This document shows positions 1,646 to 39,483 of a stretch of 39,498 nt of DNA, one piece after another. The notes under the pieces were generated by a model. That model saw only the letters and a program-made list of their open reading frames with translations. It searched no databases and was not told the DNA's origin. A program made the translations under genes and the position numbers. Source of the DNA: a virus. Lineage: Duplodnaviria > Caudoviricetes. Each line of letters begins with the position of its first letter. Within the stretch, counting starts at the first letter, position 1. The stretch lies in the IMG/VR virus record IMGVR_UViG_3300033067_001759, positions 1 through 39,498 of that record. One strand, written 5' to 3'.

Positions 1646-1873
1646 ATGCAATCACAACCAAAAACAGAATTTCAAAAATCATTCGAACAACTGCTGCAGC
1701 AGAATAAACAATTATTTGAAGATGTGGAACTAAATAGTAAAAGTGCAGATGAAGCTGCAATAGCATCAGCCAGTATTTTTCAGCAATTTATTAATAAAAT
1801 GCGCTATCCATCTGAACCTAAACTAAATATAATATCAGGAAATACAAATGAAAACACACAGGTATTAGTATAA
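1646..1873 (+). CDS. Hypothetical protein; its TAA stop is the core of the first array site
   Basis: 75-aa ORF starting 2 nt after the previous stop and ending in gtaTAAC. Confidence 0.6.
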   Translation: MQSQPKTEFQKSFEQLLQQNKQLFEDVELNSKSADEAAIASASIFQQFINKMRYPSEPKLNIISGNTNENTQVLV

Positions 1874-1998
1874 CGTCCGTCGGCTTTATCGTCGTTGCTT
1901 AGAATTAAAAAGAACCATTACAAATACACAAATACTATAAAATTATGAATACAGTTTTAGAAAATGCCGAAAGTAGCAATGCGTTAAAACCGATGTTA
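1871..1998 (+). repeat. attC-like hairpin site 1
   Basis: TAACgtccgTCGGctttatcgtcgTTGCT ... AGCAAtgcgttaaaaCCGAtGTTA. Confidence 0.75.
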
Positions 1999-2292
1999 GC
2001 ATTAGCCTTAACTTCACCTGCTTTAGAATGGCAATCAAATAGAAAAGGTCGTTGCAGTTATCCTGCAAATTTTAGAGGAAAAGTTCCTTTAAAAGTAAAA
2101 GTTGCTAAAAATGTAACTCCTGACTTACCAATGTTTAGTAATATTTTAGGAATACAGAAAGATGATATTTGCTTAAAAGACAACGAATACTATGTTTGGG
2201 TTAATTCTTATGGCGCAGTTTCCGCTATACTTCCAAATGGTAAAAAATTAGGATTACTACCTTCGGAATTCGATGTTACAGAATGGCACTAA
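1945..2292 (+). CDS. Cassette 1 hypothetical protein (starts inside the site 1 loop)
   Basis: 115-aa ORF. The unit is flanked by GTTAGCattagcctt and aaggttgatGCTAAC. Confidence 0.7.
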   Translation: MNTVLENAESSNALKPMLALALTSPALEWQSNRKGRCSYPANFRGKVPLKVKVAKNVTPDLPMFSNILGIQKDDICLKDNEYYVWVNSYGAVSAILPNGKKLGLLPSEFDVTEWH

Positions 2293-2304
2293 AAAGGTTG
2301 ATGC

Positions 2305-2397
2305 TAACGGTTGGGTATTTGTGTCAGGTTTTGCCTTGCACAATGCTCAATTCAAAGCACAAATGTTGATGGCAAAACTTGCACAAATACCTTGTTA
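2305..2397 (+). repeat. attC-like hairpin site 2
   Basis: TAACggttgGGTATTTGTGtCAGGTTTTGCC ... GGCAAAACTTGCACAAATACCttGTTA. Confidence 0.85.
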
Positions 2398-2468
2398 CCT
2401 GCTGATGCGGTTAATTATGGCAAAACTTTAATTGGAACACGAAACAAAAACATTTTAAATTTTAAGCG

Positions 2469-3044
2469 ATGGAAACAATTACAATTTTAATTATTTGCGG
2501 TTTTATGGGATGGTTTTTTGCTAAATCATTGCGAACTGAATCGACAAGTAAAAGCAATATTACCCGAATTGATGATAAGAATTGGATAGTGAACAACGAA
2601 TTTGTATCGTTTGAAGAAGATACTCCAATTCTTAGATTTAAACAGGAGATGGAAGATAATAAGCATTACCGCAATTATGAAAGCGAAAAACTAAGTAGGG
2701 ACAGAGAACGAATATTTAATGACTGGATGAAAACAACACAAGCCATTCACAAACACGCTGATTTGAAAAATTGTGTGACGGAAGAGAAGTTAGAAGCGAT
2801 AACAGAAAAATACGACAAGTATCTTTTTATGTGCAAAAAACTTGACGAAACAACAATGATATTGAGCAAGGAAGAATTTTTAATCAAAGAAGAAAACCCT
2901 GCGTTTTGTGTTGATTGGACTAATATGATGTGGTTTCCGAAACACTTAGGAATTTATGAAATACATAATGAAAAAACCGCAAGGTATTACAAGGGAAATA
3001 TGAATGAACTGATAGCAAAAGAATTTAAAACGAAATGGTATTAA
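2469..3044 (+). CDS. Cassette 2 protein with N-terminal membrane anchor
   Basis: Hydrophobic start METITILIICGFMGWFF; 191 aa. Confidence 0.7.
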   Translation: METITILIICGFMGWFFAKSLRTESTSKSNITRIDDKNWIVNNEFVSFEEDTPILRFKQEMEDNKHYRNYESEKLSRDRERIFNDWMKTTQAIHKHADLKNCVTEEKLEAITEKYDKYLFMCKKLDETTMILSKEEFLIKEENPAFCVDWTNMMWFPKHLGIYEIHNEKTARYYKGNMNELIAKEFKTKWY

Positions 3045-3118
3045 AAGTGCGTAGGCAAAAATTTAAAATGTTTTTTGAACCGAAATGTTATTGGGAACAC
3101 TAATGTAGCATTTGCAGG

Positions 3119-3243
3119 TAACGTTTTGCAGATACCCGAAGGAGGGATTAAGAAGTATAAAAATTAATATAACAAAAAATGTTTAATCGAAGCAAAAATG
3201 TTCATATAACCACTAAAACCCCTCTTTTGGGTATGTGCTGTTA
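3119..3243 (+). repeat. attC-like hairpin site 3
   Basis: TAACgttttGCAgATACCCGAAGGAGGG ... CCCTCTTTTGGGTATgTGCtGTTA. Confidence 0.85.
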
Positions 3244-3275
3244 TAAGCCGTTTTTCTTCACAAATCAACTTTAAA

Positions 3276-3533
3276 ATGATAACAGATAAATTAACAAGAG
3301 AACAACAGCAAGAGTTATTAAATACTCTTTTTGGATTTTACTTTGTAAACACCAATGATGACCATTGGGTATTGTATGACGAAGAAGGACATGAATTTTA
3401 CGGAAGTAATGAAAATTGTCAATTTGACTTTTCAACTCTTGCTGGTATATTTTCATATACTGCCCATAGAGCAAAAAATCAAGGGTATTCAGATTGTCAA
3501 TTTGCAATGCGTAAGGTTTTGGGTATCCGCTAA
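3276..3533 (+). CDS. Cassette 3 hypothetical protein
   Basis: 85-aa ORF with an A-rich leader, between GTTATAAGCCgtttt and aaaatGGCTTATAAC. Confidence 0.7.
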   Translation: MITDKLTREQQQELLNTLFGFYFVNTNDDHWVLYDEEGHEFYGSNENCQFDFSTLAGIFSYTAHRAKNQGYSDCQFAMRKVLGIR

Positions 3534-3542
3534 AATGGCTTA

Positions 3543-3747
3543 TAACGATTAACAGATTTATTTAGTTTTAAAAGTATTATTATGAGAAAACCAAAAGATA
3601 TTTTACATAAAAAATTGTATGCTTTTTTTATGATTTACGGTATAAAAACATCTGACAAATCAATACCATATATTGTTCAAGCAATGCAGGAATACGCAGA
3701 GGAATACCACCATTCCGAACTTTTAAAATTGAATAAATCTGATGTTA
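3543..3747 (+). repeat. attC-like hairpin site 4 (long coding loop)
   Basis: TAACgattaaCAGATTTATTtAGTTTTAAAAGT ... ACTTTTAAAATTgAATAAATCTGatGTTA. Confidence 0.8.
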
Positions 3748-3851
3748 TAAGTTCGGTTTGCAATCATACATGGAAACTTATGAGAAATACACACTATTTA
3801 TACAGATGCACAAAGTGTGGAATGCCAAACGAAATGCAAACTTACTTATAA
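3582..3851 (+). CDS. Cassette 4 small protein with C-terminal zinc-ribbon-like motif
   Basis: CNH...CTKCG motif. Reads through the right arm of site 4 as KLNKSDVISSVC; its stop is the next TAAC. Confidence 0.65.
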   Translation: MRKPKDILHKKLYAFFMIYGIKTSDKSIPYIVQAMQEYAEEYHHSELLKLNKSDVISSVCNHTWKLMRNTHYLYRCTKCGMPNEMQTYL

Positions 3852-3973
3852 CGTTTTGGGGCTTGTAGCAGTAGGGGATTTATAGCACTACTGTTCAACC
3901 TACCACCAAAGCTGATTAGAAGTACACAGCTCAAAATTTGCACTTCTGCCCCTATTGCTACAAACCCTTGTTA
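3849..3973 (+). repeat. attC-like hairpin site 5
   Basis: TAACgttttgGGGcTTGTAGCAGTAGGGG ... CCCCTATTGCTACAAaCCCttGTTA. Confidence 0.85.
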
Positions 3974-4013
3974 TGCGTTCGGGCTTTTGTTTAACGAATT
4001 AAATTTTAAAAAT

Positions 4014-4439
4014 ATGATAATAGCAATTGATTTTGATGGAACGTGTGTAACTCACGAATTTCCAAAAGTGGGAAAGGATATAAAAGCCGTTCCTGTACTA
4101 AAAGCATTGGTTGAAAATGGACACCAATTAGTATTATTCACAATGCGAAGTGATATAGTTAATCCTACTGGTGAGGATAACGAATTGCACCTTGAAAGTG
4201 GCAACTATTTAACCGATGCCGTTAATTGGTTCAAAGAAAATGAAATACCACTTTACGGAATACAAACTAATCCAACTCAACACACTTGGACTACAAGCCC
4301 AAAAGCTTATGCTCAAATGTATATTGATGATGCTGCATTAGGCTGTCCATTAACTTACGATAAAGAATATGCAGAACGTCCATTTGTGGATTGGACTGTT
4401 GTCGGTAATATGTTAAGGTGGAACGGTCTTTTAGCCTGA
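4014..4439 (+). CDS. Cassette 5 HAD-superfamily hydrolase (BT0820-like)
   Basis: IIAIDFDGT (motif I), LFTMR, SPKAYAQMYIDD (motifs III/IV). Confidence 0.85.
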   Translation: MIIAIDFDGTCVTHEFPKVGKDIKAVPVLKALVENGHQLVLFTMRSDIVNPTGEDNELHLESGNYLTDAVNWFKENEIPLYGIQTNPTQHTWTTSPKAYAQMYIDDAALGCPLTYDKEYAERPFVDWTVVGNMLRWNGLLA

Positions 4440-4443
4440 CGCA

Positions 4444-4571
4444 TAACGCTCTGGCGGCTTGCCGTTCGTTGGCGATTAAGAAGTAGAAAAATTCAAGATA
4501 GCAGAATATGAAAAAGAAACCAATAACTCCATTTAAACTGAAAACCGCCAATGACGGCAATGTGCCTGTTA
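4444..4571 (+). repeat. attC-like hairpin site 6
   Basis: TAACgctctGGCggcTTGCCGTtCGTTGGCG ... CGCCAATGACGGCAAtgtGCCtGTTA. Confidence 0.85.
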
Positions 4572-4759
4572 GCGGCAGTTTTATGAGTGTAGTTGCTTTG
4601 GAACGTCTAATTAAAAAGTGGAATGAAGATGCAGACAAAATAAAACTACTCACAGATGTAAAGGAAACAAAACATCAAAGAGAAGTAGCTAACCACTTTT
4701 TAATTCAGTTATACAAGTGTATAGGTGATGCAGAAGCGGAGTTGAAAAATTGCCGCTAA
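4508..4759 (+). CDS. Cassette 6 hypothetical protein (starts in the site 6 loop)
   Basis: 83-aa ORF; its stop is the TAA of the next core. Confidence 0.65.
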   Translation: MKKKPITPFKLKTANDGNVPVSGSFMSVVALERLIKKWNEDADKIKLLTDVKETKHQREVANHFLIQLYKCIGDAEAELKNCR

Positions 4760-4951
4760 CGTTTTGCAGATTTATTTAGTTTATTAATTTATACAATATG
4801 GAAGAAATTAAAAAGATACTTGAAGAAATAATGGATTATCAGATGAATAATGTTCAGTTAGCAAGAACTACTAAGCCATACTTATTGGCAAAGAAAGGAC
4901 TTGAAATTTTAAAAGGAACTGAAATTAATAAATTGAATAAATCTGATGTTA
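4757..4951 (+). repeat. attC-like hairpin site 7 (long coding loop, related to site 4)
   Basis: TAACgttttgCAGATTTATTtAGTTTATTAATTT ... AAATTAATAAATTgAATAAATCTGatGTTA. Confidence 0.8.
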
Positions 4952-5037
4952 TAAGTTCGGTTTGTGAGCATGAAAAAACATACTATTGCTTAGTTACTGG
5001 CGGAATGAGATGCAGAAAATGTAAAAGATGCTTATAA
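4798..5037 (+). CDS. Cassette 7 small protein with C-terminal zinc-ribbon-like motif
   Basis: KLNKSDVISSVCEH...CRKC; shares the arm-encoded peptide with cassette 4. Confidence 0.65.
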   Translation: MEEIKKILEEIMDYQMNNVQLARTTKPYLLAKKGLEILKGTEINKLNKSDVISSVCEHEKTYYCLVTGGMRCRKCKRCL

Positions 5038-5052
5038 CCACAAACTGACTTA

Positions 5053-5178
5053 TAACGTTGGTGCGCTTTGCGTCAGTTGCTGACTTAGAACCGCATATTT
5101 TCCAATAAACCAAAACAAAATTATGAAAACAAATAGTTCAAATACCACAGATTCAGCAATTGCGCAAAACGCCGGTTA
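5053..5178 (+). repeat. attC-like hairpin site 8
   Basis: TAACgttggtGCGcTTTGCGtCAGTTGCTGA ... TCAGCAATTGCGCAAAaCGCcgGTTA. Confidence 0.85.
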
Positions 5179-5641
5179 TGCGCTGCGCAAGAATGATTGT
5201 TTACGCACTCCAAAATATATTACGGATGCGCTCGGAACTTTCAATTTAGATCCGTGTGCTGGTGAACATACAAATATTGCAACTTTCAACCTTTGGGATG
5301 GTCGCGGCGAAAATGGATTAACGGCAGAATGGAACGGTTTTGTTTGGTGTAATCCGCCATTTTCTCAAAAAGAAATCTGGGCCCAAAAAATGATTGAGCA
5401 TAACAACGGAATTTTGATTTTGCCGGAACGCGGATCTGCTCCTTGGTTTGGACCATTAGCTAAAAAAACAGGATGTTATTTTGTTATGGGTAAAAAGATC
5501 AACTTCGAAGGCGGTAGTAGTTCTAATAATCTCGGAAGCATTTTATTTCCGTTCGGAGATCTTGCGGTACAAAGAATTGCTCAAAGCGGACTTCCGGGAC
5601 ATTTCGTGTCGGTTGAATGGTTCCGTGAGCGTCGCGCATAA
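5123..5641 (+). CDS. Cassette 8 phage DNA N6-adenine methyltransferase (phage Dam-like)
   Basis: TPKYITDALGTFNLDPCA, NGL, and the catalytic VWCNPPFS motif. Confidence 0.85.
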   Translation: MKTNSSNTTDSAIAQNAGYALRKNDCLRTPKYITDALGTFNLDPCAGEHTNIATFNLWDGRGENGLTAEWNGFVWCNPPFSQKEIWAQKMIEHNNGILILPERGSAPWFGPLAKKTGCYFVMGKKINFEGGSSSNNLGSILFPFGDLAVQRIAQSGLPGHFVSVEWFRERRA

Positions 5642-5735
5642 CGTTTTGCAGCTTGGTGTCTGTTATTTTGCCTTGCAGATACTTCAAGCATTAGATAAAA
5701 TTTATAGGCAAAATAATAGCACCAAATCGCTGTTA
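5639..5735 (+). repeat. attC-like hairpin site 9 (related to site 2)
   Basis: TAACgttttGCagcTTGGTGtCTGTTATTTTGCCT ... AGGCAAAATAATAGCACCAAatcGCtGTTA. Confidence 0.85.
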
Positions 5736-5770
5736 CCAGCAGTTAATATTCACAATTTAAAAACGAAAAT

Positions 5771-5998
5771 ATGATTTGGTATAAGATTGAAAACAAAAAG
5801 CCACTTGCCTATATGACTGGCGGATGGGATGGCAAAAAGAGCGACAAAGTATTAGTATGCACAAGAAGTGGTAGATACTACGTTGCGGAAATGTATGAAG
5901 GTATTTTAGATGGAAGCGAATTTTGCGACTTCTATGATGACCGAGATTTTGAAATTGAAAACGTGGCTTTTTGGACAGAGATTGATAGTCCGTTTTAA
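5771..5998 (+). CDS. Cassette 9 DUF551-like phage protein
   Basis: W..I..KKP...VLVC...Y.VA.....V.FW.EI..P pattern. Confidence 0.7.
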   Translation: MIWYKIENKKPLAYMTGGWDGKKSDKVLVCTRSGRYYVAEMYEGILDGSEFCDFYDDRDFEIENVAFWTEIDSPF

Positions 5999-6002
5999 TT
6001 GC

Positions 6003-6030
6003 TGGTAACATACAATATATACAGCAACCT
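6003..6030. other. Putative attI-like insertion site (lone core without a partner arm)
   Basis: tggTAACatacaatatatacagcaacc. It closes cassette 9, has A rather than G after TAAC, has no downstream GTTA arm, and lies about 55 bp before the recombinase. Confidence 0.55.
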
Positions 6031-6062: not shown

Positions 6063-6899
6063 ATGAATATTCCCAAGTACATAGATTTATTCAGGAATGA
6101 AATTACCAGAAAAGGTTTTCGTCCGGCAACCATAAAAAACTATGTTAGCTGCATCGAATGCTTTCTACATTATTTTGAAGGTAAAGTTACGGAACCGGTA
6201 AAAATTAACGAACAACAGATCAAAGACTATCTGGCAACTTTTCAAACACAAAACACACAGCGCGCAAATCATTCTGCCATAAAATGTTTTTTTATATACA
6301 CACTGAAACAGCCAAACAAATTTAAATACATTGAATATTGCAAGCGCGATAGAAAATTACCGATTGTTTTATCTGTAGAAGAAATACAGAAACTATTTAA
6401 TGCCTGCACCAATGTAAAGCACAAAGCAATTTTGTCATTATTGTACAGCGCAGGGCTTCGAGTATCAGAAGTAATTAACCTGAAAATTACGCATATTGAC
6501 AGCAGCAGAATGATCATAAATATTATCAATGCAAAAGGTGGAAAAGACAGACAAGTAATGCTTAATCAAAACGTGCTGGAATTGCTGCGTACTTATTATA
6601 AAATGTACAAACCTAAAGAATATCTGTTTAACGGACAAAATTCACAGCAGTATTCTTCCAGAAGCATCAATGAGTTTTTAAAAACATATGCAGATAAAGC
6701 TGGCATTGAAAATAAAAGAATTTACGCACATCTGATGCGCCACACTTCATTTACGCACATGGTAGAAAACGGAACAGATATTAATCTTATTCAAAAATTA
6801 GCCGGACATTCTTCTGTAAAAACAACATTGCTGTACACGCACATCAGTCATAATCTAATAAAAAATATTCAATCACCAATTGCACAAATTAATTTGTAA
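6063..6899 (+). CDS. Integron-integrase-like tyrosine recombinase lacking the IntI-specific insertion
   Basis: N-terminal TIKNY SAM-like domain, LPIVLSVEE, GLRVSE, KGGKDR, HLMRH, LAGHSSVKTTLLYTH, terminal SP. R-K-H-R-H-Y residues are intact. Only a short linker precedes YLF. Confidence 0.9.
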   Translation: MNIPKYIDLFRNEITRKGFRPATIKNYVSCIECFLHYFEGKVTEPVKINEQQIKDYLATFQTQNTQRANHSAIKCFFIYTLKQPNKFKYIEYCKRDRKLPIVLSVEEIQKLFNACTNVKHKAILSLLYSAGLRVSEVINLKITHIDSSRMIINIINAKGGKDRQVMLNQNVLELLRTYYKMYKPKEYLFNGQNSQQYSSRSINEFLKTYADKAGIENKRIYAHLMRHTSFTHMVENGTDINLIQKLAGHSSVKTTLLYTHISHNLIKNIQSPIAQINL

Positions 6900-8902
6900 T
6901 GCTAGTTGATTATTCGAAATACCACCAAACATTACACGAAATTCTGGAATCTTTAGACATCCGATTTTCAGATATTAAGCCATCAGAATGGGTAGAGAGA
7001 AATCGGGTAATGACATCTGCAGAAAGCAGCATGCCGGGACCGTTTTCCTATAATCGTACACCATATTGCCGTGAAATTGTAGATTGTATGATGCCGGACC
7101 ATCCAGCACGTATCATTTCTGTGATGAAAGGCGCACAGATCGGATTTTCTACAGGTGTAATTGAACCGGCAATTGGTTGGATAATTGCAGAAAGTCCTGG
7201 AACTACCATGCTTTTAACTGGTCATTCAGACTTATCAGAAGAAGCAGTTACTAAAATTGATGGATTAATAGACAGTTGCGGAATCCGGCATTTGATAAAA
7301 CCAACTGTACAGCGTGCCAGAAACACAAAAACCGGTGATACCAATAATAAAAAAGAATTTGCCGGTGGTAGTTTAGTTTCTGGAAGCGCAGGCAATCATA
7401 AATTATTACGTCAGCGTTCTATCCGTTATGGTTTTATAGATGATTTTGATGCTGCAAAGAATAAGTCAAAAGAATCAGGTAGCACGCGTAAAATGATTGA
7501 AAAACGTTTTGCTGCTTATGATGATAAGATGAAGCTGTACTACATTTCCACACCAGAAACACGGCCATCGAATATTGAAGAGGTTTATTTACTTGGTGAT
7601 CAGCGGAAATGGCATGTTCCATGTCCATGTTGCGGTGAAATGATAGTATTAGAATGGTCAATACCTATCGAAAATTCAAAAGAAACCGCTGGAATTACAT
7701 ATAGATTAAATGAAAATAACCGTTTAATTCATGAAAGTGTTGGTTACATATGTCAAAAATGTGGCGATTTCTTTACAGAAAAACATAAATACGACATGAA
7801 TTTGAATGGCAAATGGATTCCAACAGCTATTCCATACCAGGAAGGAAACTATTCTTACCATATTTCTGGATTAAATGCACCACCTAGTAATGCCGGTTGG
7901 GAACAATGTGTGCTGGATTATCTGGAAGCAAATCCACCTGATGGCAATCGTAAGGAAGATTTGCATCAAACTTTTATGAATTTATGCCTAGGTGAAGCTT
8001 ATGAAATTTCTGCAGAAGAAATTAAAGCGACAGAACTGCAGAAGAATATCAGAAATTATGAAATAGGCATTATACCTGAAAAATTATCTATAGAAGATGG
8101 CAACGGTAAAATAGTAATGCTCACGCTAGGTTGCGACTTAAACGGAAAGCTGGATGATGCGCGTTTAGATTTCGAAATTGTTGCGCATTCAGAAAATGCT
8201 GCTACTTATTCTATTTTACACGGAAGCATCGGAACATTTATACCACGTGAAGGCAAAAACGGAATAGATCGGGAAAGATGGACATATCAGCACGGCATGG
8301 AAAAAAGCGTATGGAAAGAATTGGAAAATATTTTACTGAAAAAATATGCAACTGATACTGGCAGAAATATAATGATAGCAGCTGCAGGTATAGATATTGG
8401 ATATGAAACAGAACACGCATGGCAATATATCAATAAAACTAATCATTTTTTTGTAGTTGGTTTAAAAGGAAAGGATATTAATAAATATGTTCCGCTTAAC
8501 AGAGATGCTAAAACTTTTAAAAAATCGTTGGAAAATCCTAAACTGTATCTGGTAGAATCCAATATTTGTAAAGATAAGCTGGCAGAACTGATGCGCTTAA
8601 AGTGGGACAAATCGCTTTCTGATGTGCAGCCTTCCGGATTTATGAATTATCCGGTGCCATCCGGCGGAAAATACCTGTTTGATAATTACTTTTCACATTT
8701 CGAAGCAGAACATCGAAAAATTGACAAAGACGGCCATTACCGCTGGCTAAAAAAATCAGACATGCACCAGAACCACTTGTTTGACTGCCGCATTTATGCC
8801 AATACTGTACGTGATGTATTAGTATGGAACATCTGCAAAGAAATGAAAATACAGAACGGCACCTGGACAGACTATTGTGATATTTTATTAAAAAGAAGAT
8901 AG
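6899..8902 (+). CDS. terL: Terminase large subunit, lambda GpA family
   Basis: GPFSYNRTPY, MKGAQIGFS, YISTP, GDQRKWHVPCPCCG, YICQKCG, NHLFDC. Confidence 0.95.
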   Translation: MLVDYSKYHQTLHEILESLDIRFSDIKPSEWVERNRVMTSAESSMPGPFSYNRTPYCREIVDCMMPDHPARIISVMKGAQIGFSTGVIEPAIGWIIAESPGTTMLLTGHSDLSEEAVTKIDGLIDSCGIRHLIKPTVQRARNTKTGDTNNKKEFAGGSLVSGSAGNHKLLRQRSIRYGFIDDFDAAKNKSKESGSTRKMIEKRFAAYDDKMKLYYISTPETRPSNIEEVYLLGDQRKWHVPCPCCGEMIVLEWSIPIENSKETAGITYRLNENNRLIHESVGYICQKCGDFFTEKHKYDMNLNGKWIPTAIPYQEGNYSYHISGLNAPPSNAGWEQCVLDYLEANPPDGNRKEDLHQTFMNLCLGEAYEISAEEIKATELQKNIRNYEIGIIPEKLSIEDGNGKIVMLTLGCDLNGKLDDARLDFEIVAHSENAATYSILHGSIGTFIPREGKNGIDRERWTYQHGMEKSVWKELENILLKKYATDTGRNIMIAAAGIDIGYETEHAWQYINKTNHFFVVGLKGKDINKYVPLNRDAKTFKKSLENPKLYLVESNICKDKLAELMRLKWDKSLSDVQPSGFMNYPVPSGGKYLFDNYFSHFEAEHRKIDKDGHYRWLKKSDMHQNHLFDCRIYANTVRDVLVWNICKEMKIQNGTWTDYCDILLKRR

Positions 8903-10089: not shown

Positions 10090-10290
10090 ATGTTTATAAC
10101 AGATGATGGATTTCAATTACAAAAATACGGAATGTGGTTTGTAGTTACTCATAATTCTGAAACTACAAATAGTATTCCAGCCAATAATGCTATTATTGGT
10201 GTAAATAATAATAGTTATTCAAATTTATTTCTAAAAGAAGAAAATGCAATTAAATTTATAGAATTATTACAAAATAATAATTCCAAATAA
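10090..10290 (+). CDS. Hypothetical protein
   Basis: 66-aa ORF in operon position, converging on the reverse-strand operon. Confidence 0.45.
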   Translation: MFITDDGFQLQKYGMWFVVTHNSETTNSIPANNAIIGVNNNSYSNLFLKEENAIKFIELLQNNNSK

Positions 10291-11025
10291 ATCATCCACT
10301 TCCACTAGCTTCTGTCTGTAATCTTTCAGGTAATAACCGGATTTAGTTTCATCAGAATAGTAATCCTGCAATAGCTGGCTGCGTTCAATATTTGCTTTTG
10401 CAGAAGAATTGCGCGCTTTTCGTTCAATATCTTTGCGAACCCAGCTGTAATGATGCATTGGCGCATCCATTAATTCTGTATTGTATAAATTTAAACATAC
10501 ATCATTTATTTGTATTTTCCGTGTAGGATCTACATAATACGGATAGTATTTTGCACCGGCAAACGTGCTTTCTTTTAGTTCATGGATAAACGGCACGTAA
10601 TAATTGTCCGGCGCTTCCAGACGTAATGTTGGCTTTTTAAAATAGGTCATTATTTTGCAAACAGATCCTTTTGCACCGGATGCCAGAAACTGCTGTTTCA
10701 TGCCGCCAAAATTTTCATAGTATTCATCACAGTCCAAATGCAGAAAGTGTGTGCATCCTTCTTCTTTGGCATACTGCAGGCCTAAATTACGTTTCAGTAT
10801 CTCATTTTCAGTTCCACAATATCTTCTCGGTTCATATTTTACCAGCAATACTTCACAACCAAAGTCCGGCACTTTAAAATCATCCATCGGATTATACCGT
10901 TCACCAAAGTTGGAAACATCCTGCCACACCAGGATAAAAATATCTACTTCATCCTTCAGGCATTTCATACTGCCGTACAGCAGTTCAACACCATCCCAAA
11001 CATTATAAATGGCGGCTAATTTCAT
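10267..11025 (-). CDS. Glycosyltransferase, GT-A fold (GT2-like)
   Basis: MKLAAIYNVWDG start, KRNLGLQYA, HLDCDEY (DxD), MHHYSWVR. Confidence 0.75.
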   Translation of the reverse strand: MKLAAIYNVWDGVELLYGSMKCLKDEVDIFILVWQDVSNFGERYNPMDDFKVPDFGCEVLLVKYEPRRYCGTENEILKRNLGLQYAKEEGCTHFLHLDCDEYYENFGGMKQQFLASGAKGSVCKIMTYFKKPTLRLEAPDNYYVPFIHELKESTFAGAKYYPYYVDPTRKIQINDVCLNLYNTELMDAPMHHYSWVRKDIERKARNSSAKANIERSQLLQDYYSDETKSGYYLKDYRQKLVEVDDLFGIIIL

Positions 11026-11300
11026 TCTTTACAAGTTGGTTCAGGTAGTTCTTTACTATCATTTCCACGTTGTGGCTTATTTTGTAATTCTCTTAAATAG
11101 ACTTTTGCCCAATTTTTAAGGTAATCAGCAGTCGCTTTTTTACCTTCATGAAATCCAATCTGATAAATTTCATCATTAGATGCATATTGATCAGTGCGGC
11201 ATTGTTTAATACCATCGGATTTTCCGAAAAAATACCCGGATAAAAATGCCAGTAATCCAACAACCGGTATGGCAATAGATAAAATTGTTTGTAATTCCAT
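11022..11300 (-). CDS. Small membrane-anchored protein
   Basis: N-terminal TM segment; ATGA-coupled to the downstream gene. Confidence 0.65.
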   Translation of the reverse strand: MELQTILSIAIPVVGLLAFLSGYFFGKSDGIKQCRTDQYASNDEIYQIGFHEGKKATADYLKNWAKVYLRELQNKPQRGNDSKELPEPTCKE

Positions 11301-11306
11301 AATTTT

Positions 11307-11900
11307 TTATTTACACAAAATGATATTTTCAGCGTTTAAATACTTTGTTTGTAAACCAAATGGTTCAAGTTTACTTACAATTTCTACAATACGTTCATCG
11401 TGCTCAATGCAAATCATTTCTATCTGTTGCCAGAACCAATCCGGAATAGCATTAAAAATTTGCATGTTGGTAGCTTCCGTATCAATGCTGATAAAGCTGG
11501 CATCTTTGCCATGCGCTTCCAGAAATTCTACGACATGCAGCTGCGGAACTTTAATAGTTTGAAAATTAACACCACCTTTCTGCCACTTTTCTTTATGTTC
11601 CTGCACTGATGTAGAAACAGCATCACCACCGGAAGAATAGAATTCCAGTTCTTCATTTGAAACACCGATGGCAACATTCAGCACTGTAATGCGTGGTATA
11701 TTTTCGTAATGTTCGGCGATTGCTTTATAGTTTATTGGATCCGCTTCAACCAACACACCATTCCATCCTTCTTCAAAAAGTTTGCGCGTATTGGATAACT
11801 GAAATACATGAAAAGCGCCGATGTCAATAAATTTTCCAACCTTGTTTTTTTTGGCAAAATATTCCGTAATAATCTGTTCTTCTTTGTTTTGTGAGTACAT
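11307..11900 (-). CDS. FkbM-family SAM methyltransferase
   Basis: YSQNKEE, FIDIGA, SNT..L...GWNGVLVEA, FISIDTE, ICIEH. Confidence 0.9.
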   Translation of the reverse strand: MYSQNKEEQIITEYFAKKNKVGKFIDIGAFHVFQLSNTRKLFEEGWNGVLVEADPINYKAIAEHYENIPRITVLNVAIGVSNEELEFYSSGGDAVSTSVQEHKEKWQKGGVNFQTIKVPQLHVVEFLEAHGKDASFISIDTEATNMQIFNAIPDWFWQQIEMICIEHDERIVEIVSKLEPFGLQTKYLNAENIILCK

Positions 11901-11906
11901 AAATGC

Positions 11907-12476
11907 TTATTTTATAATGACTAATACATCATCAAAACGGTTCAGAATATGCCTTCTGTCCAGAATGGTGACTGTTTTACTTTTATCAATATTTTCAAAA
12001 GCGGCCCGGCTTTTATCAATGTCTTCAATGTCTTCAATAATGTAAATGCCACTTGGTGCCAGGTATTCTTTGTAAATTTGGTACAGCTTAAGTTGCTGTT
12101 CCAGCGAGTGGTTTGCATCTTCAATAATGACATTGAACTTCTTACCATAAAAATGAAAATCCACTTCTTCAGGGTTTTCCGCATCAAATATTTTAATGGT
12201 ATGTTCACCGCTTTTAATCATTTCGCGCAAATCTGCCATGCCATCGTGTGGTGTTTCGTGGCAATCCACACCAATTACATCTGCAAATTCAAAATACTGT
12301 TCCCACAAGCGTAAAGAATTTCCTTTAAACACACCGATTTCCAGCACTTTATTGGCTGTTTTACGATATGGTTCCAGGAATTCTTCATACACATCAATAT
12401 AACTGTGTACGGTGCCTTTGTCCGTTTCAAATCCCTGTTGCTGCAGTGTTTGAAATATGTTTTTTAATGTGTTCAT
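11907..12476 (-). CDS. Class I SAM-dependent (sugar O-) methyltransferase
   Basis: TDKGTVHSYIDVYE, VLEIGVFKGNSLRLW, IIEDANH, GIYIIEDI. Confidence 0.85.
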   Translation of the reverse strand: MNTLKNIFQTLQQQGFETDKGTVHSYIDVYEEFLEPYRKTANKVLEIGVFKGNSLRLWEQYFEFADVIGVDCHETPHDGMADLREMIKSGEHTIKIFDAENPEEVDFHFYGKKFNVIIEDANHSLEQQLKLYQIYKEYLAPSGIYIIEDIEDIDKSRAAFENIDKSKTVTILDRRHILNRFDDVLVIIK

Positions 12477-13333
12477 AATGGATATCTTTTGCCTGCTATT
12501 TCTACCTGATTATCCATTTTTTCATAACCTAAATTTTCAGGATGTCCTAAGTTTATAATAATTCCTTCTGAAAGCCAACTGGCAACCGAACCGGTGCTGC
12601 TTCTGTTTTTTATATACCAGAAACATTTCGAAAATAACCAAACCATAAGCGCAGGTTGCATGCCGCGTTCAAATCCGCTTATTGGAATATGTCTTTCAGG
12701 ATTATCCAGGCTGCCAAGCGGCGAAGAATGAAATTCATCAATATTAAATGACTGCGGATAACGGTCCAGCAGCGGCTGCAAAATGGTTTCTTCTTCTGCT
12801 GTACACATGATGCGCGCATCTGGTGTAGCTTCCAGTGCCAAATCTATGTATTTAAAATACGTTTCAATTGGCATCCGCGGACGGCCATCTGTTACGTTAT
12901 CCGTTCCGCGCCAGGTAATACCAATAGTTTTAGAAAAATTTATGTTGTATTTTTCTACTATCTGTTGTCCGCGCTGGTTAACCACATCATTAAAATGCAG
13001 GTATTTTTTGTAATATTCTTTAATGACATCCAACGGTTGTGCCATAAACGGCACAGGGCTGCTATCCTGCCAGTTTTCCCAAGTCCATACTTCAGTTGCC
13101 GGTTGAACTTCTTTTATTTTTGGCTGTGTAAAATACCACTCAAACATATTTGGAATCGTCGAAAACTTTTCAGTATCGTGGTATGGTAGCAGCGCGCGTG
13201 GCGGTGTATGTCCATCCGGCCAGTTAATGTAAACGTCTTTTCCCTGTTGTTCTGCTGCCCACATTTGCCAGAATGCACAGTAAATCCATGTGGTTAAGGT
13301 AGCTGCAACGTCTGTTTTTTCTAAATAAATCAT
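12473..13333 (-). CDS. NodZ/fucosyltransferase-like glycosyltransferase
   Basis: NMFEWYFTQP, IGITWRGTD (H/W-x-R-G-T-D GDP-fucose motif), LFSKC..YI...SS. Confidence 0.65.
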   Translation of the reverse strand: MIYLEKTDVAATLTTWIYCAFWQMWAAEQQGKDVYINWPDGHTPPRALLPYHDTEKFSTIPNMFEWYFTQPKIKEVQPATEVWTWENWQDSSPVPFMAQPLDVIKEYYKKYLHFNDVVNQRGQQIVEKYNINFSKTIGITWRGTDNVTDGRPRMPIETYFKYIDLALEATPDARIMCTAEEETILQPLLDRYPQSFNIDEFHSSPLGSLDNPERHIPISGFERGMQPALMVWLFSKCFWYIKNRSSTGSVASWLSEGIIINLGHPENLGYEKMDNQVEIAGKRYPL

Positions 13334-14031
13334 TGTATCAGTTTTTGTAATTCATATTCATAACTTGCCGTTAAATCTTTTGTAGTATCAGTGCTGTCAA
13401 CTTTTCCGGTAGAAAAATCTATAGTTTGCCAGGTACGATGAAAACCAAATGGAAATTCACGTAAATATTTTGGATTACGGTTTCCGCCCTGTGCAAAATC
13501 ACATGCCTGTTCTTTAGTTGCAAACTTAAAGTGACTAAAAGATTTATTCAAACACAATACACCATCTTCATAATAACCTAATCCTTGCTGCAATATTTCA
13601 GTATCTTCAAAAGATTCATTCCAATCTGGTAATAATTCTGCTGCATATTGCATAAGTTTTTTAGACCGCAAAGAAAATCCACCGCTTCCAACCCCATCAA
13701 ATTGTACAAATAATGGTCCTATATAATCCAGTTCCAGCCATTCCATTTTAAATGATTGCGCATTTAATATCCAGCCATCACGTTGTACAATCAATAAATT
13801 TGGCGTGTCAATATATTGATGCAGCTTTTTAAGCATAAAAACAGAATACATTACTAAAGAAGTCAGCGGCATAATTTCTACACGGTGTTCAGATTCTGCC
13901 GGAAGATGTGTTAGCAGCTTCACAGCACCAAAATCAGCCTTTTGTTTACAGATTTCCAGCACCATTGCCGCGCGGTTTGCATCTACGCAGTCAACACAAA
14001 CTAATGTAACTGTAGGTAATTGTAGTTTCAT
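13330..14031 (-). CDS. DUF5672-like putative glycosyltransferase
   Basis: LPTVTLVCVD, YSVFMLKKL..YIDT..LLIVQRDGWILN, DYIGP, VGSGGFSLRSKKL, ED, PFGFH. Confidence 0.75.
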   Translation of the reverse strand: MKLQLPTVTLVCVDCVDANRAAMVLEICKQKADFGAVKLLTHLPAESEHRVEIMPLTSLVMYSVFMLKKLHQYIDTPNLLIVQRDGWILNAQSFKMEWLELDYIGPLFVQFDGVGSGGFSLRSKKLMQYAAELLPDWNESFEDTEILQQGLGYYEDGVLCLNKSFSHFKFATKEQACDFAQGGNRNPKYLREFPFGFHRTWQTIDFSTGKVDSTDTTKDLTASYEYELQKLIQ

Positions 14032-14621
14032 TTATTGCTTATAAATCTGTAGTGATACAATATTTTTTCTGTGTAAAATTCATTTTTTAGTAATCCCGAT
14101 TTGTGTATTTGTTTGGACCAGTCATGATCTTCACCAAAATTCTTTTCAGGAAACTTAAACTGTTTGGCAATTTCCGCCCGAATGCAGTTCAAATGATTTG
14201 GATAACGTTCGTATTTTACAAAGTTGTCTGTGGTTTTCCATTCATTATATTTTAAAGAATGTTCGAAAATTTCTGGATTGTTACCGTTGGTAGTCATTAT
14301 GCCACGTAAAGAAACTACATCAGGTTCTGTTGCTAATGCCGTTCTGATAGTAGAAATATAATCGCTTTTTGGAAAATCATCATCATCAAAGGAGCAAATA
14401 TATTTACCTTCTGCAGCTTTTAAAAGTCTGTTTCTTTTAGCACCTAAGCATAAATTTTCATCTTTATCCATTAAAATTTCTATATCAGAAAAAATGTATT
14501 TTTTAATTTCACCAATAGTAATACGTAAATTACCACCTATTTGTATTTCAAATTCACTTAAAAGTGAATACAGCATTTCTTTTCTGCTGCTTATAGTAGG
14601 TATTAAAATAGATAGCATCAT
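14028..14621 (-). CDS. Glycosyltransferase family 2
   Basis: LSILIPT..R, GAKRNRLL..AEGKYICSFDDDD, FGEDHDW. Confidence 0.85.
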   Translation of the reverse strand: MMLSILIPTISSRKEMLYSLLSEFEIQIGGNLRITIGEIKKYIFSDIEILMDKDENLCLGAKRNRLLKAAEGKYICSFDDDDFPKSDYISTIRTALATEPDVVSLRGIMTTNGNNPEIFEHSLKYNEWKTTDNFVKYERYPNHLNCIRAEIAKQFKFPEKNFGEDHDWSKQIHKSGLLKNEFYTEKILYHYRFISNK

Positions 14622-15268
14622 AGTGGAAAATTTACAGATTTACGTTTATAATAAGTTAGCTTTCCAGAATCCCAGTGTTGATTATTTCGTAAATAAGTAG
14701 CATCCTTTTCTGCTTTTCCGTTGCAATAATGATGATGTGGAAATACAAGTGTTGGAACTTCCAATAGCCAGTTGTTATTTTTGCTGGTCCAGTATAAATC
14801 CTGGTCAACAAACATAGATTTGTATTGCGGATGCCATAAATAACCTAGCTTATTATACAAAGTCCGGTTCATTATTGGTATGGTAATAATATCTACTTCA
14901 AATTTCTGTAAAGCATCGTCTGTTTTTAAAATCAATGGCTTTTCCATGCCAGCATCTAAAAAAATACGGATTATTTTTTCATCCCATCCGGCAGGACAAA
15001 CAAAATCATCTGATAGATAAACTAGAATATCACCGGTCGCAACAGATGCAGCTAAATTCGTAGCTTCTACTAAACAACTGTTATTATTTTCTATAATACA
15101 AGATCTTGTAAAAAGCAATCTATATTTAGAAATTTCAGGATCATCAGTATCTAATGATAAAACATGTTCAATTTCAAACATCAAACTACTGCAATTAAGC
15201 CAATTCATAAAAGTATGATAAGCTTTCATGGCACGTCCGCGCGATGGATGTATTAAAGATATTTTCAT
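14618..15268 (-). CDS. Glycosyltransferase, GT-A fold
   Basis: ISLIHPSRGR, ATN..A..ATGDILVYLSDD, Y.SMFVD.DL, HHH. Confidence 0.8.
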   Translation of the reverse strand: MKISLIHPSRGRAMKAYHTFMNWLNCSSLMFEIEHVLSLDTDDPEISKYRLLFTRSCIIENNNSCLVEATNLAASVATGDILVYLSDDFVCPAGWDEKIIRIFLDAGMEKPLILKTDDALQKFEVDIITIPIMNRTLYNKLGYLWHPQYKSMFVDQDLYWTSKNNNWLLEVPTLVFPHHHYCNGKAEKDATYLRNNQHWDSGKLTYYKRKSVNFPL

Positions 15269-15396
15269 GATAATTGTAATTCTAACTGTTTCATTTCAGC
15301 CGCAGTTTTTTTTATCTGAATTAATTTCTTTTTTGTTGATGGATGATTTTTCCATTCTTCAAACGTAAAAGGATATTTTAAAGGCTTAATTTTCAT
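15265..15396 (-). CDS. 43-aa hypothetical protein (not in ORF track)
   Basis: MKIKPLKYPFTFEEWKNHPSTKKKLIQIKKTAAEMKQLELQLS; fills the gap and overlaps both neighbours (ATGA coupling). Confidence 0.55.
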   Translation of the reverse strand: MKIKPLKYPFTFEEWKNHPSTKKKLIQIKKTAAEMKQLELQLS

Positions 15397-16054
15397 TATA
15401 ATACTGTGTATAAAAATTAAAACTTTCAAAATCATCATGTTCCTGTATCATGTGCTTATGCAGATACACAAACTTTTCATCTTTATTGGTAAATCGGTGC
15501 AGTTTGTCAACATGGTTTACACCGCCGCAAAGTCCTACACCATGTTTTATACCTATTGCAATTGGATTTACAGGATTAACAATTTTGCCATTTAATCCGG
15601 TATGCAGCCATAAATGTAAATCTGTGTAAGGATCATTGTCAGCACACCAGCTAAAATGCAAATCTGGTTTTATAAGCGTATTCATGGCGCTGGCACGTTC
15701 CGGATGATTCATAGTAAAATATCCGCGTTCTTTCAAGTGATAATATACAGTGTATGCAGTACCAAATAAATCTGGCATATCATAATGCATCCATCGTTTC
15801 ACCATGAATTCTATATAATTAGGTGCATACCAGTCGTCATTTTCAATCAATAAAATACAATCAAATCCTTTTCCGCGCAAACGTTCATATCCTGTACGAT
15901 AACGCCAGGTAATATCTTTTTCTGCAGAAAGTGGAGGATCAGCCACAATTTCGATGTGATCAGGTGGTATTGTTTGTTTGCGCATCATCCGCAAACAATT
16001 ATTTAAAAATTCGTGGCGGTCGCCACGGTCCGGTATGATGATTGCAGTCTTCAT
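15386..16054 (-). CDS. Glycosyltransferase, GT-A fold
   Basis: MKTAIIIPDRGDR..FL...L....QT, ILLIENDDWY. Confidence 0.75.
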   Translation of the reverse strand: MKTAIIIPDRGDRHEFLNNCLRMMRKQTIPPDHIEIVADPPLSAEKDITWRYRTGYERLRGKGFDCILLIENDDWYAPNYIEFMVKRWMHYDMPDLFGTAYTVYYHLKERGYFTMNHPERASAMNTLIKPDLHFSWCADNDPYTDLHLWLHTGLNGKIVNPVNPIAIGIKHGVGLCGGVNHVDKLHRFTNKDEKFVYLHKHMIQEHDDFESFNFYTQYYNEN

Positions 16055-16058
16055 ACAC

Positions 16059-16148
16059 CAAAAGTAAGTATGCAAATACTGTTCATTATTTTTTCATTGG
16101 TAAATAACCCATAAAAAAAACTGATGTTGCTTTTGTATTATAGTTTTG
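16059..16148. promoter_or_regulatory. Divergent promoter pair around a 35-bp palindromic element
   Basis: TAnnTTTG boxes at 16066-16059 (minus, TACTTTTG) and 16141-16148 (plus, TAGTTTTG), nearly symmetric about element 16087-16121. Confidence 0.65.
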
Positions 16149-38393: not shown

Positions 38394-38617
38394 CCGCAAT
38401 AAATACCGCAATAAAGCTTCTTAAAATATTAAAACCGCTATAAAATATAGCGGTTTCAGTTGTTAAAGTAGCCCGTACGGGGCTGTTATACTTTACTTTA
38501 TTTGGTTTTTTATTACCTTTTTTGTGTGTTAAATACGCTTATTGTCTAAATTAGTGCTAATAATTGTTTTAAAAATCGCTTTAGTGAAATTTTAACCGCA
38601 ATAAATAACGCAATAAT
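38394..38617. other. attP-like region: tRNA-3'-end core with flanking arm-type repeats
   Basis: Core 38468-38481 reads CCCGTACGGGCTAC on the minus strand. CCGCAATAAA occurs at 38394, 38406 and 38596, with a variant at 38608. Confidence 0.7.
38432..38456 (-). terminator. Hairpin downstream of the tRNA-like core (terminator candidate)
   Basis: AAACCGCTATA-aaa-TATAGCGGTTT. Confidence 0.55.
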
Positions 38618-38622
38618 TTACT

Positions 38623-39483
38623 ATGAATGTCTTTTTTAAATTAGCCAACAAAAATAAAAAAGGTGAAAAGCTGATTGTATTGGCAATGTACTACAATAAA
38701 GACAGGTTCGTTTTTTCTACCGGTGAAACAATTCTACCGGAACACTGGCATCCGGAAACCATGCGGCCTTCCGCAGACAAAGAACTTCCGCGCCAAATAG
38801 CGGCTGCCAATAAAATTAAGAAAAATATCTTAGATAGATACGAAAATACGTTGCTGGAAATTATAGGTGAATACAAACGTGCCGGTATTGATTATGATAA
38901 TCAAATTCTGAAAAATGAAATGTTGCAGCGCCTGAAACCAGGTAAAGCAGAAAAGAAACCAATTGTAAAACAGAAAGACGGACATCTGACTGATTTCTAC
39001 CAAATAATAGATGCATTCATTCAGGATAGCAAAAGCGGCATCCGTAACACCAGAAAGGGTACCAATATAAAGTTCAGAAGAATACAGAAGTATGAAGCTT
39101 TAAAAACCATGCTGCAGGAATGGCGGCCTGTAATCCATATCAATGATATTGACATGGATTTCTACCAGGAACTGGTGGCACACCGCAATGATAAAAAGAA
39201 AGCCATTAATACCATAGGTATGGATATTAAAGTGCTCAAAAGTATTTTAAAGTATACCTACGGAAAGCTGCACCACAACGATATCTTTAAAAATGATGAT
39301 TTTCGTGCTTTTGAAGAAATTGGTGAACACATTTACCTAAACGATGCGGATCTGGATAAATTATGGAATCTGAAAAATTTAAAGCCTAACCTGGAAAGGA
39401 CCAGAGATGTTTTTTTAATTGGCTTCCATTGTACTTTCCATTCTCGTACATTCTGTACATATTTTCTGAAATACCCAATTTAA
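38623..39483 (+). pseudogene. int: Phage tyrosine integrase truncated before the catalytic motifs
   Basis: Arm-binding N-terminus (RFVFSTGETILPEHW), SAM-like domain, IYLNDADL, RDVFLIG; then unrelated sequence and a stop instead of the expected TGLRxSD. Confidence 0.75.

Follow-up and report, generated by a model that had tools for sequence, protein, structure and literature searches.

Must a mobile cassette be a gene followed by its recombination site, as in integrons, or can a hairpin site travel ahead of its gene? This question is raised by the viral record IMGVR_UViG_3300033067_001759 (Caudoviricetes), which was analysed as one window of 39,498 bases, the whole linear virus record. Nine imperfect palindromes running from TAAC to GTTA (S1 to S9) and an unpaired TAAC at 6006 occupy the array region 1871-6009, between a 75-aa gene that ends at 1873 and a tyrosine recombinase gene at 6063-6899. 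A preliminary description had proposed that a cassette is a hairpin plus its downstream gene, that the genes point toward an attI-like half site and the co-oriented recombinase, that crossover is at TAA|C and that the coding strand folds. The comparisons reported here indicate that the moving unit is the hairpin with its downstream gene, and we consider it probable that the locus is an integron-like array of such hairpin-first units, in which the coding strand is likely cut by the adjacent recombinase. Papers are cited by PubMed Central (PMC) number, and statements drawn from them refer to the available part of each text.

The window was compared with 187 loci carrying relatives of the recombinase (the best 80 viral, the best 80 metagenome and 27 genome loci) and with contigs from 8 of 21 listed runs, run X1 not being counted as support because the window itself may derive from it. 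Polarity was scored in pairs of sites in which the 120 nt on one side were at least 90% alike and the other side was different. Pairs that shared the downstream side had similar stem arms in 15 of 22 cases (12 of 19 in a smaller set), and pairs that shared the upstream side in none of 18 (none of 14). Counted by cluster, one stem was kept in 11 of 13 shared downstream bodies, in different upstream contexts, versus none of 9 shared upstream bodies. Breakpoints between homologous arrays, whose mapping the preliminary description had recommended, placed the main boundary at TAAC and not at G|TT. Among 89 ends of matches at least 95% identical, a detected feature was no more than 12 nt away for 46; the remaining 43, ascribed to backbone differences or missed sites, lay elsewhere. 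The left ends fell at TAAC (14), the half site (11), GTTA (none) or elsewhere (24), and the right ends at TAAC (12), the half site (3), GTTA (6) or elsewhere (19). Identical units occurred in different order among sibling phage arrays. None of 91 arrays ended in a hairpin, none had a hairpin starting at the half site, and a one-cassette array (L161) had its hairpin ahead of the gene. The longest open reading frame (ORF) of 209 clean cassettes was on the recombinase strand in 199, thus facing the half site and the recombinase, on the opposite strand in 4 and absent in 6.

The same boundaries were seen for the units of the window itself, where all nine sites, the terminal half site and every motif quoted in the preliminary description were located as given, including the sequence that follows both S4 (3744) and S7 (4948), the motif with which both close (3837 and 5041) and the 12-mer common to S2 and S9 (2329 and 5666). 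Four cassettes (4, 5, 6 and 9) were found again as TAAC-to-TAAC units in other sequences. The unit 3543-3853 (cassette 4) was found with another left flank in a run X7 contig; cassette 5, from the TAAC of S5 to that of S6, was 92-95% identical in L192-L194 with both neighbours different; 4441-4759 (cassette 6) lay without differences within a 1937-nt contig of run X5; and 5638-6009 (cassette 9) was matched, apart from 2 differences, by a contig of run X14, where the 5' arm of another stem follows. In run X2, 2326-3118 (cassette 2) was followed by a different stem. Homologues of cassette 1 (L272-L279) have other stems, differ up to GTTA and terminate at the following TAAC. Both platforms bordering the array also end at TAAC: the left platform DNA of runs X3 and X7 was common up to 1875 and then led into a different first stem, with no complementary GTTA flank upstream, and right platform homology (L081, L084, L161 and run X3) started exactly at 6006. 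A search for relatives of the left platform protein found none.

The position of the crossover was narrowed further by covariation. The T or C of YAAC varied with the upstream body, a CAAC end being found in 6 of 7 GTTG bodies and in none of 196 GTTA bodies, and the variable spacer went with the stem in identical copies; the crossover therefore lies inside AACG. The proposal of TAA|C thus stands as far as the box is concerned, and the exact bond would be TAA|C by analogy with the cut in integron attC sites (PMC7439510, PMC5027507). At all nine sites (9 of 9), a run of 4-6 nt after the GTTA complements the bases before the TAAC of the next site; with the TAAC flank of the same site the match is 0-1 nt only. 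In related arrays the mean complementarity was 4.63 of 5 versus 1.69 (229 cassettes), and the body ends were mutually complementary at 4 or more of 5 nt in 209 of 229, which shows that the units close into circles. As a proof of polarity this complementarity was rejected, the same pairing being predicted by both models.

We examined how widely these sites occur. A strand-neutral hairpin scan of the first 80 loci and the window, run before any detector geometry was set, gave 243 hairpins upstream of the recombinase, 228 of which had 2-4 extra bases beside TAAC on the coding strand of the recombinase. A detector with its geometry fixed from this result found 317 sites in the 618 kb that precede related recombinases (173 loci); the opposite strand gave 10 and the 920 kb on the downstream side gave 6. 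Over the whole window the detector returned the nine sites and two weak, chance-like matches outside the array. A site was present in 83 of 94 loci with a recombinase at least 40% identical and more than 1.5 kb of upstream sequence, a count that leaves out 10 more distant loci. A loose-pattern site search was no better than its control, and S5 had no match among GenBank phages. The cultured Polaribacter phage Leef_1 (MT732473; L280:4843-6940) has the same layout, with three detected sites, a last body with complementary ends and a half site 58 nt ahead of a 39.5% identical recombinase. Polaribacter phage P12002L (NC_028924; L282, 29150-40950) has seven detected sites besides a previously published site, attC1, all on the coding strand and several before methyltransferase genes. 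Among the 199 co-oriented ORFs of the family, 86 had an in-frame ATG within the hairpin and ran through GTTA, and 39 stopped at the TAA of TAAC. An ATG overlapped the GTTA box in 47 of 269 stems (for example 1993-1998 of the window), so that a start codon can fall on the stem-body junction, and GTT was read as Val in 59 of the 86 loop-started ORFs.

The recombinase appears fully equipped for catalysis. Residues R133, K158, H223, R226, H249 and Y258 are intact and are 98-100% conserved in 140 proteins. Its best solved relative is XerA (5hxy, E 4.5e-34). The match to VchIntIA (2a3v) is split into 17-178/16-180 and 203-275/248-319, with 24 residues between the two segments versus 67 in VchIntIA. 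The K-to-H spacing is 59-68 aa in the 125 relatives with both motifs. The TIGR02249 score was 153 bits against a cutoff of 265, and the integron, XerA, XerC and XerD models were all below cutoff. The enzyme is thus predicted to be without the IntI-specific I2 insertion. The half site ahead of it has TAA at the inner edge of its left arm, as in dif-like sites, and lies at a fixed spacing from the recombinase start, mostly 53-57 nt across loci. Each hairpin 3' arm also reads 11-6-11, and arms and spacers differ from site to site despite this shared layout.

We next considered which strand is the substrate. The AAC strand is the one cleaved by tyrosine recombinases of this kind (PMC5027507), and since the constant platform lies to the right of TAAC, the cut AAC strand would be the coding strand. 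In the window, G:T wobbles counted by eye from the alignments were 18 on the plus strand versus 7 on the minus strand, in agreement with the preliminary description; in 269 unique stems there were 470 on the coding strand versus 173 on the other (218 versus 69 without the conserved positions 6, 14 and 15). Position 15 was G:T in 247 of 269 stems, including all nine window sites. Of 265 family sites, 222 had a coding strand of lower DNA folding energy than the opposite strand, the mean gap being 1.9 kcal. Folding of both strands, another recommended check, therefore favoured the coding strand across the family, and within the window alone the tendency was weak, the plus strand being the lower one at seven of the nine sites, with gaps of 0.3-4.1 kcal. 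The family bias is close to that of attC bottom strands, for which a gap of 2.12 kcal and G:T values of 1.24/0.39 are given (PMC5027507). Together with tyrosine recombinase chemistry, these results support the folded coding strand as the probable recombination substrate.

The hairpins are asymmetric. The TAAC arm carried 3-4 extra nucleotides in 350 of 364 cases, and an optional bulge, mostly T, was on the same arm. One position ran counter to the strand bias: where the 3' arm had A at position 6, the inner mirror of AA|C, its partner was C in 128 of 133 cases and T in 3, and bases other than A at this position were paired normally. The inner C:A mismatch may be a built-in block on a second cut. 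In 67 near-identical stem pairs, spacer positions 6-9 after the T of TAAC (for example 3854-3857) differed in 22-31%, the loop in 11% and the stem mostly in 0-6%. This spacer variability possibly reflects short-patch exchange or repair beside the cut.

In the mechanism that we propose, the adjacent Xer-like recombinase would cut the folded coding strand at TAA|C and exchange one strand with a partner, either the half site or a second hairpin; the resulting junction would be resolved by replication. We infer single-strand hairpin recombination of this kind because the spacers vary and a strand bias exists. In the circular cassette, the outer 11-bp binding arm would be built from the inverted ends of the body and the inner arm from the stem. 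The strand would be marked by a 10-nt over 6-nt spacer and the G:T pair at stem position 15, and the C:A mismatch would prevent the second cut; spacer, G:T and C:A would thereby take over the role of the integron extrahelical bases and I2 helix. The half site would be the entry point for new units. An integron-type promoter (Pc) in the platform could not read the cassettes because the genes face the platform, and the cassettes would instead be transcribed from upstream phage promoters, since the array lies in a co-directional run of phage genes. More rarely, a stem would be exchanged at GTTA, most likely through a cut of the other strand, changing the leader or N-terminus of the gene. Consensus promoter scans gave coding-strand counts at chance level. 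A Bacteroidota -7 promoter motif was present in 55 of 269 stems when the minus strand was read and in 19 when the plus strand was read (19.4 in plus-strand shuffles); for the half-site-to-ATG regions the counts were 16 of 119 on the minus strand and 1 on the plus strand.

Several observations weigh against parts of this interpretation. S5 and S8 favour the minus strand in folding energy, and S1 folds no better than shuffled sequence. The coding-strand G:T bias is equally expected of an RNA hairpin. The extra bases lie on the arm bearing the cut AAC, a geometry that IntI disfavours (PMC5027507). In P12002L the sites are found without an annotated tyrosine recombinase. The link between stem and body is loose in part: of 46 multi-member stem clusters, 40 are followed by two or more different bodies, and several stems occur in 2 of 13 body clusters. 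For addition of cassettes beside the recombinase, as proposed in the preliminary description, the sibling arrays gave no direction, their orders being too shuffled. The empty allele it suggested was looked for in viral sequences and none was found; an exact 16-mer of the left junction matched 31 viral stretches that all lacked homology to the window, and a degenerate half-site pattern search gave zero matches.

The loose link between stems and bodies indicates that the association is not permanent and that a second junction exists at GTTA. In several pairs, stems 95-99% identical sat on unrelated bodies, with homology stopping 0-2 nt after GTTA; contigs of several runs diverged right after the GTTA of S5 (3973) and S9 (5735); the HAD body was found with 3 stem classes and its paired flanks kept, and in L195 high identity with this body began at GTTA. 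Either the stems are a template added at cassette birth, for which species-specific attC repeats offer a parallel, or a rarer G|TT cut on the other strand passes a neighbour's stem to a body. The HAD body keeps its flanks, and stem handover at G|TT is therefore favoured in its case. These observations, together with cassette 1 homologues that differ up to GTTA, could also be read as two separately mobile modules, a stem or leader from TAAC to GTTA and a body from GTTA to TAAC, with both boxes regularly cut and leader swapping a main function. The direct product of G|TT excision, the same upstream body and stem with a new downstream body, was however found in 0 of 18 pairs, so the GTTA route must be much rarer than the TAAC route, and stems on unrelated genes could come from the birth template. 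We regard regular cutting of both boxes as unlikely.

The canonical polarity, with a gene plus downstream hairpin, a G|TT crossover on the plus strand and recombination of the non-coding strand, would account for genes that end at or near TAAC as in integrons, for the six stem-only right ends at GTTA and for minus-strand extra bases that lie opposite AAC, which IntI prefers (PMC5027507). As the main pathway it is refuted by the unit mapping, in which no upstream-body cluster kept its stem and no left end fell at GTTA; the left platform leads into different stems, no array ends in a hairpin and many ORFs begin inside the hairpin and cross GTTA. We give it hardly any weight. With the polarity as mapped, the strand bias might instead come from RNA, through a leader or terminator fold or an RNA birth route, with another DNA substrate. 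The strand favoured in folding is also the one that is transcribed, the hairpin or the sequence immediately after it holds ORF starts and A/T-rich leaders, and every 3' arm forms an 11-6-11 site as duplex DNA and thus a candidate substrate. The mapped crossover is in the 5' arm, however, and not in the 3' arm, no Rfam family was matched significantly (best E 0.17), and the spacers differ between sites. Differing spacers preclude classical two-strand exchange, and an RNA origin of the bias seems very unlikely to us. A host enzyme, XerC/D-like or IntI, might move the cassettes with the adjacent recombinase incidental, as the dif-like 11-6-11 half site with TAA at its left inner edge (compare ODN3, PMC7399989) and the recombinase-free annotation of P12002L would allow. 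The fixed spacing between half site and recombinase, their co-occurrence and the conserved catalytic residues argue against this, as does the failure of IntI1 to recombine P12002L_attC1 (PMC9892861), and we find it highly improbable. Finally, the sites might be terminators or MITE/REP-like repeats that undergo no site-specific recombination, and stem families are indeed multi-copy in metagenomes (depth peaks). This reading has virtually no standing; it is refuted by identical units reordered at TAAC, and the body ends are complementary and terminator-like sites are not in excess (5 versus 3.6 ± 1.7 expected). No link to a MITE paper was apparent in the available part of PMC11602168.

The preferred reading, a hairpin-first array, places the system close to integrons in function. 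As in integrons, a tyrosine recombinase with intact catalytic residues stands beside a non-palindromic, hairpin-free insertion site of the attI type, single-gene units carry imperfect hairpins with AAC/GTT cores and ends that pair in the circle, and one strand is preferred through its G:T pairs and by about 2 kcal. When the phage array is read on the minus strand, its layout of enzyme, half site and unit boundaries is the same as that of an integron. In integrons, however, the gene precedes attC and points away from attI, whereas in the phage array the genes face the half site, and promoter-facing integron cassettes have, according to the available part of PMC5027507, never been observed. IntI has the I2 insertion and the phage enzyme appears to be without it; attC has an extrahelical G and T on the arm opposite the cut AAC, whereas the phage sites have their extra bases on the TAAC arm, a 10 over 6 nt spacer and no conserved extrahelical G. 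Unlike in integrons, cassette ORFs often begin inside the hairpin. The system works like an integron but, judged by I2, polarity and extrahelical bases, falls outside the integrons. In the 'inverted integrase' integron type, apparently only intI is flipped (PMC13323075), which is different from the phage array.

Xer systems share the 11-6-11 site layout and, through XerA, the best solved relative. An I2-less Xer carries out one strand exchange on folded single-stranded DNA of CTXphi (PMC4792948; PMC3442271). CTXphi and pdif elements use host XerCD and form no such array, whereas the phage has a dedicated enzyme of its own and ordered, variable hairpins; dif and pdif have a fixed central region, whereas phage arms and spacers vary by site. 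Qi 2023 (PMC9892861) described phage CALINs and treated the P12002L sites as IntI-type attC in 'divergent directions'. P12002L_attC1, one of two sites of this phage assayed in that study and the only one of six sites not recombined by IntI1, is on the coding strand before a methyltransferase gene and by eye has the layout of the phage-array sites; attC2 is on the other strand and has another geometry. That paper, in its available part, called one such site attC and did not describe the polarity, geometry and cognate enzyme given here, and its Dryad annotation may list more. The full-text literature, which does not cover most subscription papers, held no account of the system.

Escudero 2016 (PMC4792948) noted the chicken-and-egg relation of the I2 helix and the attC extrahelical bases and speculated on a viral Xer-like origin of integrons. 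Hairpin cassettes served by an I2-less Xer-like phage enzyme make this question testable, and the array is an exception to the rule that no cassette is oriented toward the attI side. It is possible, and we put it forward tentatively, that this is a second, I2-less cassette-shuffling system of Bacteroidota phages, either an extant relative of the pre-integron stage or an independent invention, in which the C:A mismatch and asymmetric spacer replace extrahelical bases and both strands are cut purposely, the coding strand for genes and the other for leaders or N-termini. One complete integron was named in Bacteroidetes proper in the available part of Neron 2022 (PMC9024848). IntegronFinder leaves 'integron-type' recombinases without attC in 97.4% of contigs (PMC13323075), and the system may account for part of these recombinases. 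The sharp stem-body junction at GTTA bears on cassette birth. The array also accounts for a region of rapid turnover in Bacteroidota phage genomes, in which genes for methyltransferases and other accessory functions are found, and Leef_1, a cultured phage with the full layout, puts experiments in reach.

Table 1. Features of the array region and its right-hand neighbours (window coordinates).
Feature	Position	Strand	Remarks
Left platform gene, 75 aa	1646..1873	+	stop codon = TAA of site 1
Hairpin S1	1871-1998	+	
Hairpin S2	2305-2397	+	
Hairpin S3	3119-3243	+	
Hairpin S4	3543-3747	+	
Hairpin S5	3849-3973	+	
Hairpin S6	4444-4571	+	
Hairpin S7	4757-4951	+	
Hairpin S8	5053-5178	+	
Hairpin S9	5639-5735	+	
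Cassette 1: S1 + 115-aa ORF 1945-2292	1874..2307	+	second ATG 1993 overlaps GTTA
Cassette 2: S2 + 191-aa ORF 2469-3044	2308..3121	+	
Cassette 3: S3 + 85-aa ORF 3276-3533	3122..3545	+	
Cassette 4: S4 + 89-aa ORF 3582-3851	3546..3851	+	start in loop, stop = TAA of S5
Cassette 5: S5 + HAD-type phosphatase-like ORF 4014-4439	3852..4446	+	NF046079 E 2.7e-19, below cutoff
Cassette 6: S6 + 83-aa ORF 4508-4759	4447..4759	+	start in loop, stop = TAA of S7
Cassette 7: S7 + 79-aa ORF 4798-5037	4760..5055	+	relative of cassette 4
Cassette 8: S8 + Dam-family adenine methyltransferase ORF 5123-5641	5056..5641	+	PF05869 E 5.1e-10; start in S8 loop, stop = TAA of S9
Cassette 9: S9 + 75-aa ORF 5771-5998	5642..6008	+	
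attI-like half site	5998..6025	+	11-6-11 layout, hairpin-free; TAAC at 6006, 57 nt ahead of recombinase start
Tyrosine recombinase, 278 aa	6063..6899	+	PF13495 + PF00589
Terminase large subunit	6899..8902	+	PF05876, PF20454; outside array, phage context

The window has terminase, portal, capsid, baseplate and tape-measure genes, and the recombinase gene directly abuts that of the large terminase. Relatives of the recombinase are mostly from Bacteroidota genomes, and the phage host is therefore probably a member of the Bacteroidota. A block of minus-strand ORFs (10267-16075) breaks the plus-strand run of phage genes; by eye, its ORF 10267-11025 is glycosyltransferase-like and its ORFs 11307-11900 and 11907-12476 resemble S-adenosylmethionine (SAM)-dependent methyltransferases. 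A second integrase, of the type with an arm-binding domain, is found at the window end (38623-39483), and ahead of it the stretch 38468-38481 may resemble a tRNA-type attachment core.

A few related loci had unusual arrangements. At L063:2542-5700, seven inverted sites and an array of normal orientation face each other, separated by a perfect inverted repeat (about 5367-5700); this inverted half is likely an assembly artefact and was not used as evidence. L163:1413-5718, from a 452-kb contig of a Flavobacterium metagenome-assembled genome, has seven sites at least 4.3 kb upstream of the recombinase. L170 and L187 each have three copies of a 32-39% identical recombinase, and a pair of identical stems lies on the opposite strand in L170.

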